Source: a virus | Direction: 5' to 3' (one strand) | Length of the DNA stretch: 40,884 nt | Virus genome (UHGV): UHGV-2008032 | Shown here: positions 4,613 to 14,334 of the stretch, in pieces | Layout: each line of letters opens with the position of its first letter | How positions within the stretch are numbered: position 1 is the first letter of the stretch | The notes under the pieces: model-generated | Database searches by the model: none | The model's input: the letters and a program-made list of their open reading frames with translations, nothing else | What the model was told of the DNA's origin: nothing | Position numbers and translations under genes: made by a program

Positions 4613-4624
4613 TTCTTGTCTCCA

Positions 4625-4646
4625 ATAAAAAACCGCCATCAGGCGG
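4625..4646 (-). terminator. Intrinsic terminator within the leftward operon
   Basis: Stem CCGCC/GGCGG with 4-nt loop followed on the minus strand by a U-run (forward A-run 4625-4632). Confidence 0.4.
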
Positions 4647-4712
4647 CTTGGTGTTCTTTCAGTTATTCAATTCGAATATTGGTTACATTGTTTTCATATA
4701 TGAATAAATAAA

Positions 4713-9163: not shown

Positions 9164-9193
9164 CAAAAAAATTGCCCTCACATTAGAGGGCAA
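9164..9193 (-). terminator. Intrinsic terminator in the leftward operon
   Basis: 8-bp stem TTGCCCTC/GAGGGCAA followed on the minus strand by an 8-nt U-run. Confidence 0.6.
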
Positions 9194-9495: not shown

Positions 9496-9557
9496 ATCTC
9501 ACCTCAAATAAGTGGTTTGCTGCCAAAACAATGAACCATCCGGAAATTCCAGATAGT

Positions 9558-9785
9558 TCATAATTCACTCTTCAATACTTCCAACTTACTAATCGCCGAT
9601 AGATATCCGCGCTGATAGGGCATCATCATTCCTTCGAGCTTGCCACTTCTTAACTCCTCCCTGAGCAATTGTATTGCTTGATCAATAACCTCTGCCTTAG
9701 CGTCCTTTATGGCTTGCTTGCGGGGCTTTGCTTTCTGCTTTGGCAGATTTCTCAAGCATGATGGAATGTATGTCTGATTCATCAC
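9558..9785 (-). CDS. Hypothetical early protein downstream of N-like gene
   Basis: 75-aa ORF abutting the stop of 9786..10058. Confidence 0.4.
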   Translation of the reverse strand: MMNQTYIPSCLRNLPKQKAKPRKQAIKDAKAEVIDQAIQLLREELRSGKLEGMMMPYQRGYLSAISKLEVLKSEL

Positions 9786-10058
9786 TTACCTGGCTGTCAG
9801 TTGTTTTGATTTCCGGTAGCCTGCCGAGTAAATGGCTACGTTTGGCAGGCAAATACTTCCACTGCATTCTTCTGCCTTCTTGCAGCGAAGGCTTCCTAGT
9901 GATGCTGCTTTATCTGCTCTGACGCAACCAGAGAGCTTTAGCGCAATTTTTCGTGACAATCGCTGTTCTTGCATTGCCTGTTCACGTTGAGCCTGTCTGC
10001 GTGCTCTGCGGCGATTTCTGGCGTTATCGTCAGCCAGATATGTAATGACTACTGTCAT
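9786..10058 (-). CDS. N-like antitermination protein (arginine-rich motif)
   Basis: N-terminal NARNRRRARRQAQREQ arginine-rich motif; first gene downstream of PL and nutL, the position of lambda N. Confidence 0.5.
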   Translation of the reverse strand: MTVVITYLADDNARNRRRARRQAQREQAMQEQRLSRKIALKLSGCVRADKAASLGSLRCKKAEECSGSICLPNVAIYSAGYRKSKQLTAR

Positions 10059-10165
10059 GTTGACCTCCGATGATTGACTTTGGCGGTGACGCGCCGGGTG
10101 CTTATCTTCCGGTTGCCGTCGTGCAGCTGCACTTCACGTCACCCCAAAGCCAACTACTCTTTGGT

Positions 10166-10207
10166 TCCCGCATTTCGGCGGGACAATCCCATCAATGTTA
10201 AAGAGCC
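10166..10207 (-). promoter_or_regulatory. nutL (boxA GGCTCTTTAACA + boxB hairpin)
   Basis: Minus-strand boxA then 6-bp boxB stem TCCCGC/GCGGGA with loop CGAAAT, identical to the boxB at 11396..11415. Confidence 0.65.
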
Positions 10208-10252
10208 TGCCAATCTGTTCCGTTTGGCTACCAGCTTCCTGCTGATGGCTAG

Positions 10253-10281
10253 ATAATCACAAATTGTGGTCGTACTGTCAA
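10253..10281 (-). promoter_or_regulatory. PL candidate promoter (TTGACA-17-GATTAT)
   Basis: Minus-strand -35 at 10281..10276 and -10 at 10258..10253, overlapped by operator sites. Confidence 0.55.
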
Positions 10282-10316
10282 CACGAAATGTGATTGTTTT
10301 TATCACAACCCGTGTT
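10256..10316. promoter_or_regulatory. OL operator cluster (three 15-bp sites, consensus ATCACA-N3-YGTGKT)
   Basis: Sites at 10256..10270, 10281..10295 (reverse) and 10302..10316; same motif as the OR sites. Confidence 0.55.
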
Positions 10317-10357
10317 TACATTGATTTTAAAGGTAATTTAATTTTCTTTGGGCAACA

Positions 10358-10380
10358 AAAAACCCGCCGAAGCGGGTTTG
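10358..10380 (-). terminator. Terminator downstream of cI (U-rich on both strands)
   Basis: Stem AAACCCGC/GCGGGTTT with loop CGAA; U-run follows on the minus strand, 23 nt past the cI stop. Confidence 0.65.
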
Positions 10381-10402
10381 ATGTTTTTAAGTGGCGGGTA
10401 TA

Positions 10403-11044
10403 TCAGGAGAATTTCATCATCATCTGCACTGCTACGCCGATTATCTTGCAGTTGCCGTCGATTGGGATCAACGGATAGGCAGGGTTAAGCCCTTTCAGGT
10501 ATTTGTTACCGCCATCAATGATTAGCTTCTTGAACGTGGCTTCATTAGCATCTGTCAGCTTCGCAACTACCAGGCTTCCATTAACGGCTTCCTTTCCAGT
10601 GTCGAACAGAACCAGCATACCCTCAGGAACGCTAAGGCCGGTAGGAGCTGTCATTGAGTCGCCCTGAACCCTGAGCCAGAAGGCGTCACCGACAACGTGA
10701 CAATCTGATTCATACCACTCATCCACTGCCTGAGGGTTGTACGGCTCTACGGCCTCACTCCATGCACCTGCGCTAACCCAGCTAATCAACGGAAACTTTT
10801 CCCCTGGCTTGTATTGTCCCTGATAGTTGTCGCCAAAAAGCAGTTCTGCCGGAGCGACACCCAAAGCTTTAGCTATTACCTCTGCGTCATCAACACTAAC
10901 GCTTCTGGTTCCTGATTCATAGTTGCCGATCCGAGATTGTGAAGCCCAGCCGCAAAGCTCCGCAAGAGCCTTCTGTGTAAGCCCTTTATCTTCCCGTAAT
11001 CGCTTGATACGCGCGGCGATAGTTTCTGTTCTGTTCATGCGCAT
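10403..11044 (-). CDS. cI: CI-like repressor (HTH plus LexA-like S24 autopeptidase)
   Basis: N-terminal XRE-type HTH; C-terminal GDSM serine and downstream lysine; divergent from cro; -10-like TATAAA abuts the ATG, so the mRNA may be leaderless. Confidence 0.85.
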   Translation of the reverse strand: MRMNRTETIAARIKRLREDKGLTQKALAELCGWASQSRIGNYESGTRSVSVDDAEVIAKALGVAPAELLFGDNYQGQYKPGEKFPLISWVSAGAWSEAVEPYNPQAVDEWYESDCHVVGDAFWLRVQGDSMTAPTGLSVPEGMLVLFDTGKEAVNGSLVVAKLTDANEATFKKLIIDGGNKYLKGLNPAYPLIPIDGNCKIIGVAVQMMMKFS

Positions 11045-11049
11045 TTTAT

Positions 11050-11111
11050 ATCACATTCCGTGGTTTAAGGCTTTACACGATTTGTGTTGACTATCAATCA
11101 CAATGTGTGTT
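11050..11111. promoter_or_regulatory. OR operator cluster (three sites) with PR
   Basis: Sites at 11050..11064, 11075..11089 (reverse) and 11097..11111; PR -35 TTGACT 11087..11092, -10 about 11110..11116; cro ATG at 11149. Confidence 0.55.
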
Positions 11112-11148
11112 TAATAAAGACTGAGTGAACTAGCTCTTAAGGAAACCT

Positions 11149-11364
11149 ATGAACAACATTGCCAACGAACGGAAAAAGCTTGGCATCACTCAATCTGCGT
11201 TAGCAGGCGCGTGTGGCTGGAACCAGTCCCGCTTAGCTAACTACGAGTCAGGTATCCGGACTCCAGATTTAGAGTCGTGCCGTAGCCTGGTAAAGGCGCT
11301 GAATAAATTGGGGAGCAAGACAACGCTAGATGGCTTGTTCCCGCCGCGTAAGAACGCCGCATAA
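11149..11364 (+). CDS. cro: Cro-like HTH repressor
   Basis: 71 aa, XRE-type HTH; SD AAGGA; divergent from cI. Confidence 0.75.
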   Translation: MNNIANERKKLGITQSALAGACGWNQSRLANYESGIRTPDLESCRSLVKALNKLGSKTTLDGLFPPRKNAA

Positions 11365-11370
11365 GCAAAT

Positions 11371-11415
11371 TGCTCTTTAACAGTCATGGTCCTCATTCCC
11401 GCCGAAATGCGGGAA
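11371..11415 (+). promoter_or_regulatory. nutR (boxA TGCTCTTTAACA + boxB hairpin)
   Basis: boxA 11371..11382; boxB stem TTCCCGC/GCGGGAA with loop CGAAAT at 11396..11415; near-identical to nutL. Confidence 0.65.
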
Positions 11416-11472
11416 TACAACGCGCATAAGTTGATGCGCATAACTTCTTATTTGTTAAGGAAATACTTACAT

Positions 11473-11751
11473 ATGGAACTTACAAGTACTCGCAAGAAAG
11501 CGAATGCAATTACAAGCAACATCCTAAATCGAATTGCTGTACGTGGTCAGCGAAAGGTTGCCGACGCGTTAGGGATTAATGAATCGCAAATTTCGCGATG
11601 GAAAGACAGCTTCATCCCCAAAATGGGAATGCTTCTTGCTGTTCTTGAATGGGGTGTTGAAGACGAGGAGTTGGCGGAACTGGCTAAGAAAGTAGCCAGA
11701 ATGCTGACAAAAGAAAAAGCCCCGAAGAACGGCGAATTCTTCGAGGCCTGA
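11473..11751 (+). CDS. cII: CII-like transcriptional activator
   Basis: ...[26 protein letters not shown]... matches the lambda CII helix-turn-helix region as recalled; start could instead be ATG 11434. Confidence 0.65.
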
Positions 11752-14250: not shown

Positions 14251-14334
14251 TGACCATCTACATCACTGAGCTAATAACAGGGGCTATTTACACAGTAGCC
14301 CTTTTTTATTGGATTAAGAACGAGGGGGATCCTG

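Follow-up and report, generated by a model that had tools for sequence, protein, structure and literature searches.

The closest described counterpart of the locus studied here is the early region of phage HK620 (Clark et al. 2001, J Mol Biol 311:657), in which the orders PL-nutL-N and cro-nutR-tR1-cII are the same as in our window, that is, the whole stretch of 40,884 nucleotides of the virus genome UHGV-2008032 that was analysed. GenBank entry AF335538 (HK620) has annotations for N, nutL, pL, OL1-3, tIMM, pR, nutR, and tR1, and both nutL and nutR of the window are base-identical to its nut features through boxA, spacer, and boxB; the comparison with known nut sites that a preliminary description of the window had proposed thus ends in identity. 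HK620 differs from the window in its immunity region (cI, cro, and operators), which in the window is another module, and in the genes found 3' of N; hkaS is absent from the window. The module that replaces the HK620 one is common to phage mEp213, with which the window has its cI-cro-cII genes in common. The same N/nut module is found in ECP1, HK140, HK630, mEp213, and mEpX2, and a 2.3-kb region of the window is 99.4% identical to Escherichia phage ECP1, while parts of that region recur in HK620, HK630, HK140, mEpX2, mEp213, and many Stx phages. At least 555 stretches in IMG/VR encode a close relative of N, and at least 80% of the nutL-N segment is present in 613 of 5426 complete E. coli genomes (~11%). 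Judged from these records, the N/nut feature is already known, having been on record since the HK620 genome of 2001, and is widespread; it matters little beyond allowing the window to be annotated correctly as lambdoid phage DNA whose early switch is of the standard N-dependent HK620 type. A search of the literature found no experimental work on the HK620-type N-boxB pair (NARNRRRARR/CGAAAU), nor did we find a solved structure of this complex.

Among the other N systems, that of phi21 has the N backbone in common with the window: the N of DE3 is 96.8% identical to the window N over residues 34-64, and some homologues carry a phi21-type arginine-rich motif (ARM) on central and C-terminal sequence of the window type. 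Like the window, phi21 has a boxB loop of 6 nt that begins with C, and the same boxA, GCTCTTTAACA. Its ARM is nevertheless another one, GTAKSRYKARRAELIAE as against DDNARNRRRARRQAQREQ in the window (by eye, 5 identities in 18 aligned positions), its loop is CUAACC instead of CGAAAU, and the stem sequences differ, so that the window, with NARNRRRARRQAQRE and CGAAAU, falls outside the phi21-type class defined by GTAKSRYKARRAELIAERR and CUAACC. The complex of the phi21 N peptide with its boxB RNA has reportedly been solved by NMR. The lambda and P22 systems resemble the window in genetic logic, order of elements, and ARM skeleton, and over residues 47-90, its C-terminal half, the window N has 57% identity to P22 gp24, whereas a sequence search with the window N gave no match to the lambda N. 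The loops of lambda and P22 are GNRA-like and 5 nt long (GAAAA/GAAGA and GACAA, respectively), unlike the window loop of 6 nt, in which GAAA is flanked by C and U and which does not belong to the pentaloop class. Lambda also has a different boxA, given as CGCTCTTA in a note of the mEpX2 record, as compared with the longer rrn-like form of the window. The nut spacer of the Stx phage H-19B is reported to contain a second hairpin; folding of the window nut sites predicted no spacer hairpin in either. In the HK620 record, N is described as "similar to H19B and 21 N", and 87.5% identity to N proteins of Stx phages is seen in the last 24 residues of the window N. The identification of the window N with that of H-19B itself was rejected, the latter being a protein of 127 aa with the ARM 12-RSRRRER-18 (PMC3526286).

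The Two nut Sites

The preliminary description had claimed that both divergent early transcripts carry a boxA followed by the same boxB hairpin, and this was borne out. Exactly two copies of the boxB sequence TCCCGCCGAAATGCGGGA are present in the window, one at 10166-10183 (-) and one at 11397-11414 (+), the latter being the core of the nutR hairpin that is common to nutL; the chance expectation is 0.03 matches even at up to three mismatches, and no shuffle reached two. The boxA sequence GCTCTTTAACA also has exactly two copies in the window, at 10196-10206 (-) and 11372-11382 (+). Its count taken by itself is not significant, as at least two matches at one mismatch were found in 15 of 100 shuffles, but the pair is meaningful because a boxB follows each copy closely on the transcribed strand. 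Each early transcript has a single site (Table 1): nutL precedes N on the leftward one, and nutR follows cro and precedes cII on the rightward one, the sites spanning 10166-10207 (-) and 11371-11414 (+), respectively, from boxA to the boxB core. The gap between boxA and boxB had been given as 12-13 nt; measured from the 12-mer of boxA to TCCCGC, this holds for nutL (12 nt) and not for nutR (14 nt), where 12 nt is reached only if one counts to the extended 8-bp stem ATTCCCGC/GCGGGAAT. In both sites the boxA, which NusB and NusE would presumably bind, is near their consensus, and it is close to the rrn boxA, UGCUCUUUAACAA.

Table 1: Features of the early region of the window.
Feature	Position	Strand	Basis
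Intrinsic terminator-like hairpin, further along the leftward operon	4620..4649	-	Consensus
tL1-like intrinsic terminator, UUGCCCUC-UAAUGU-GAGGGCAA then U7	9164..9193	-	Consensus; HK620 tL1 comparably placed
Candidate leftward terminator, hairpin and UGUUUUGG, directly after the stop codon of the gene 3' of N	9531..9561	-	Consensus
N gene, 90 aa	9786..10058	-	Pfam, PHROG, homologue comparison
Long hairpin in N leader, between nutL boxB and N Shine-Dalgarno	10073..10154	-	Fold
nutL boxB hairpin, 6-bp stem UCCCGC/GCGGGA, loop CGAAAU	10166..10183	-	Sequence search and fold
nutL boxA (GGCTCTTTAACA)	10196..10207	-	Base-identical to annotated HK620 nutL
PL-like promoter, TTGACA-17-GATTAT with TG extension, within operator-like repeats	10253..10281	-	Consensus scan, 10/12 matches
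tIMM-equivalent hairpin, T runs on both strands, between end of cI and PL	10360..10379		Consensus; HK620 tIMM in the same place
cI-type repressor, HTH and S24 peptidase	10403..11044	-	Family match; immunity type common to mEp213, unlike HK620
Probable PR, TTGACT-17-TTTAAT, overlapping operator-like repeats	11088..11116	+	Inferred; read from the sequence, missed by the consensus scan
cro-like HTH repressor, first rightward gene	11149..11364	+	ORF and family match
nutR boxA (TGCTCTTTAACA)	11371..11382	+	Sequence search
nutR boxB hairpin, 8-bp stem AUUCCCGC/GCGGGAAU, loop CGAAAU	11395..11416	+	Base-identical to annotated HK620 nutR
Hairpin GCGCAU-AAGUUG-AUGCGC with U-rich tail, just after nutR (tR1 region)	11422..11456	+	Fold; HK620 tR1 directly after nutR
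cII gene	11473..11751	+	Phage_CII, 144 bits
tR2-like intrinsic terminator, between helicase gene and ninB region	14279..14313	+	Consensus and ORF layout

The two boxB hairpins fold with stems of 6-8 bp and a loop of 6 nt, at -10.7 kcal/mol (z -2.0) and -12.5 kcal/mol (z -5.5). They might be taken for ordinary terminators, attenuators, or RNase sites, or for a repeat left by duplication, bearing no relation to the arginine-rich protein. The nutR region does overlap the tR1 annotated in HK620, and phage early leaders are rich in hairpins: the scan of the window called 28 terminator-like sites against 13.6 expected, all of them being consensus matches in a prediction of intrinsic terminators. However, no T run follows either boxB and the scan called neither of them a terminator, each stands at a fixed distance from a boxA, and the identity of the loop tracks the ARM of the adjacent N gene (Table 2). 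In addition, nutL and nutR have little sequence in common outside boxA and boxB, which means that plain duplication is not the explanation. We therefore regard hairpins of this ordinary kind as very improbable and treat the two sites as nutL and nutR in what follows. An Rfam search of the whole window at the gathering threshold returned no family, and thus no curated nut or boxB model.

In the minimum-energy folds of both nut sites, boxA pairs with sequence 3' of boxB (10160-10207, - strand, and 11374-11461, + strand). The candidate pairing is GCUCUUU with AAAGAGU in nutL and UCUUUAACAG with UUGUUAAGGA in nutR, where the second partner overlaps the ribosome-binding site of cII. A regulatory helix between boxA and the 3' flank is no more than a candidate: the fold of a longer nutL leader favours another pairing, and the paired bases are invariant among the relatives, so that no covariation was seen.

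The N Gene and Its Leader

The first leftward gene had been described as N-like with an arginine-rich N-terminus, and the comparisons agree. Its product, translated from 9786-10058 (-), has the arginine-rich N-terminus DDNARNRRRARRQAQREQ; the 90-aa ORF begins with MTVVITYLADDNARNRRRARRQAQREQAM and the ARM occupies approximately residues 10-28 (DDNARNRRRARRQAQREQA). It matches the Pfam family PF25694 N_peptide ("Transcriptional antitermination N peptide") with 57.4 bits at a cut-off of 27.9 and PHROG 271, 'anti-termination protein N-like', with an E value of 4.5e-34, and it is 97% identical to the HK620 N, which is also 90 aa long. Searches with N of the PDB sequences, even at E 10, and of NCBIfam gave no match. 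Its central and C-terminal parts recur in N proteins of the phi21 type, of the P22 type, and of Stx phages. The leftward early operon begins with N: the promoter lies at 10281-10253 (-), the start at 10058, and no family-supported ORF stands between them.

One could also imagine that antitermination is independent of a protein and RNA-based, as at the put sites of HK022, the N-like ORF being a remnant. Nothing specific favours this, other than that some relatives have rearranged N leaders and that, at a mEp213-like locus, one copy of N has a boxB joined to one half of a terminator. The put sites are ~65 nt long and have two stems, unlike the window sites, which are single short hairpins with a boxA. 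The N ORF moreover is intact, with a GGAGG ribosome-binding site upstream, and has the near identity to HK620 N and the Pfam score above threshold given above. A put-like mechanism is thus scarcely credible here, and N is taken as the acting protein.

The N leader of 211 nt folds at -77.7 kcal/mol (z -4.1), and its long hairpin (Table 1) may, by its position, resemble the hairpin that RNase III processes in the leader of lambda N. In lambda this hairpin couples N translation to RNase III.

The gene directly 3' of N in the window (9558-9785) encodes 75 aa and belongs to PHROG 5305, of unknown function. In an Enterobacter prophage (L087, 3773-4072), the gene directly 3' of an HK620-type N matches another family, Pfam PF26859 'Phage_N_antitermin'; its translation has no obvious arginine-rich motif and is unrelated to the 75-aa protein of the window.

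Layout of the Early Region and Proposed Mechanism

The layout of the region is canonical, with PL, nutL, N, and terminators to the left and PR, cro, nutR, the tR1 region, and cII to the right, and the PL-like promoter has the position of the annotated pL/OL1-3 of HK620. Predicted terminators stand 3' of the nut sites in both early operons. The two terminators noted previously in the leftward operon (4625..4646 and 9164..9193) were recovered by consensus as terminator-like hairpins, the core spans of the scan being 4649-4630 (-) and 9193-9172 (-), and the scan placed the core of the tR2-like site of the rightward operon at 14279-14303 (+). The hairpin at 10360-10379, AAACCCGC-CGAA-GCGGGTTT, could terminate transcription in both directions.

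Taken together, the feature is very probably the module for early processive antitermination in a lambdoid phage of the HK620/ECP1 kind, with a cognate ARM-boxB pair unlike those of lambda, P22, and phi21. The elements and their placement, the homology of N, the identity to annotated nut sites, and the co-segregation of ARM and loop in relatives are observed; RNA binding, dependence on Nus factors, and read-through of terminators we infer from the family. In such a module the PL and PR transcripts would each carry a nut site, made up of boxA, a spacer of 12-14 nt, and the boxB hairpin, and the 90-aa N would be translated from the first PL gene. The N-terminal arginine-rich motif of N would bind the hexaloop hairpin of boxB while NusB and NusE of the host bind the rrn-like boxA, and N would join NusA and NusG on RNA polymerase, making it resistant to downstream terminators. 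Leftward, the terminators at 9193-9164 and 4649-4620 would be read through, giving expression of recombination and exclusion genes; rightward, passage through the tR1 region after nutR and through 14279-14313 would give cII, the replication genes, and the nin region, cII being predicted as the first gene to require passage beyond nutR and the tR1 region.

Arginine-Rich Motifs and boxB Loops across Relatives

A profile search of genome contigs with the ARM-conserved alignment gave 600 pattern matches and 0 confirmed relatives, our guess being that the arginine-rich pattern is too unspecific for a contig search; a second contig profile search gave only 4 loci. The comparative set was made up of 256 fetched loci, from IMG/VR and from contigs of named homologues, which are not phylogenetically independent and include some contigs more than once. 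The N ORF, the ARM class, and the first hairpin after boxA were identified in each (Table 2).

Table 2: ARM class of N and boxB loops of the nut sites (number of loci in brackets).
ARM	nutL loop	nutR loop
NARNRRRARR	CGAAAU (116)	CGAAAU (109)
phi21-type	CUAACC (77)	CUAACC (71)
P22-type	GACAA (19)	GACAA core (16; scored CGACAAC)
lambda-type	GAAGA or GAAAA (1 each)	GAAGA (2)
KAREIRKLERAR	GAUUC (12)	GUUUC (12)

In none of the 256 loci was an ARM of the NARNRRRARR, phi21, P22, or lambda class joined to the loop of another of these classes; in the remaining NARNRRRARR loci the upstream regions are truncated or rearranged. Lack of conservation of the boxB hairpins in relatives had been named beforehand as an argument against the N/boxB reading. 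The hairpins are conserved, both exact copies being present in 73 of the 80 IMG/VR loci with a window-type N. Variants give the same picture: in contigs of named homologues with a phi21 ARM the loop is CUAACC or CUAACA in both nut sites, and in variants from Enterobacter and Cedecea that have the NARNRRRARR ARM it is CGAAAU. The N homologues are mosaic, some joining central and C-terminal sequence of the window type to a phi21-type ARM (WKESKGTAKSRYKARRAELIAERR) and others having the window-type ARM on a different C-terminal half, which makes a natural swap test possible.

How far these associations go beyond linkage differs between the two sites. As nutL lies only 106-560 nt from the ARM codons, its co-segregation with the ARM may partly reflect linkage. 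nutR, on the other hand, is separated from N by the immunity module, and at least 11 different, unrelated immunity modules are found between a nutL and a nutR that both have CGAAAU, so that the matching of nutR is not due to linkage to N alone. In these sequences, this argues for selection on the matching of nut and ARM. Within the CGAAAU class the loop and the closing C-G pair are invariant while stem and spacer vary. In the stem (outer stem and one inner pair), three pairs are changed on both sides, and 89.6% of cells are paired as against at most 60% with the partner slid, the basis being only 6 distinct hairpin sequences in loci that are not independent.

An alternative that accepts the N/nut system would deny CGAAAU a specificity of its own, the loop being a product of neutral drift and N cross-reacting with the boxB of phi21, P22, or lambda, or the reverse. 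Every N ARM does have the skeleton A-x-x-R-x-x-x-R-R, a hybrid ARM (SKNRYRARR) is found with CUAGCA and CUAACA loops, suggesting intermediate forms, and the boxB requirements of P22 and lambda are said to overlap. Drift would not be expected to leave 0 of 256 loci in which NARNRRRARR is joined to the loop of phi21, P22, or lambda, or one of their ARMs to CGAAAU, nor to hold the loop invariant while stem and spacer vary, nor to keep nutR matched across the 11 unrelated immunity modules, and we consider this alternative unlikely. The comparison with N-family ARM peptides sets NARNRRRARR apart from the phi21, P22, and lambda classes, and the specificity distinct from lambda that the preliminary description had suggested gains comparative support from the co-segregation of ARM and loop in the 256 loci. 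That NARNRRRARR and CGAAAU form a cognate pair distinct from the lambda, P22, and phi21 pairs is likewise supported, at the level of sequence.

Whether the NARNRRRARR ARM and the C-GAAA-U hexaloop go so far as to make up a fourth recognition mode, functionally orthogonal to those of lambda, P22, and phi21, is a proposal to which we give even chances. In one possible form, GAAA would fold as a canonical tetraloop and stack on a C-U mismatch. If true, it would provide an extra orthogonal peptide-RNA tethering pair and data on how ARM helices read hairpin loops. The table of ARM class against boxB loop on a common N backbone is in itself modestly useful, and such a swap table could guide the choice of orthogonal peptide-RNA tethering pairs or a structural study of the CGAAAU loop.

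Some relatives depart from the classes named above. In L195-L212 and neighbours, the N-terminus MKAREIRKLERARQHKEMKAYCKKIDRAFS is found on a related C-terminal backbone, with the loops GAUUC (nutL) and GUUUC (nutR), and another N-terminus, MNRNQRRMAAYNAMKAAQK, occurs there with loops that are not clearly resolved. Both look like additional ARM-boxB classes from their sequences.

The leader between nutL and N is 106 nt long in most relatives, as in the window, and 179-560 nt long in ~40 loci, which include L010, L011, L021-L025, L052-L054, L057, L062, and L075 and have additional DNA after the nutL boxB, ahead of the start codon of N. The added leader sequence of L062 and L167 encodes a degenerate P22-type ARM (GNAKTNNHRHTR), which lies upstream of the start of N and in frame with it, and the insertion in these loci looks like the scar of an exchange of N modules. 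At another locus (L006, 3610-3650), there is an N copy 98% identical to the window N and without boxA. Here half a tL1-like terminator stem stands in place of the 5' half of boxB (tctttGCCCTC|CGAAATGCGGGAAC), the junction falling exactly at the hairpin loop.
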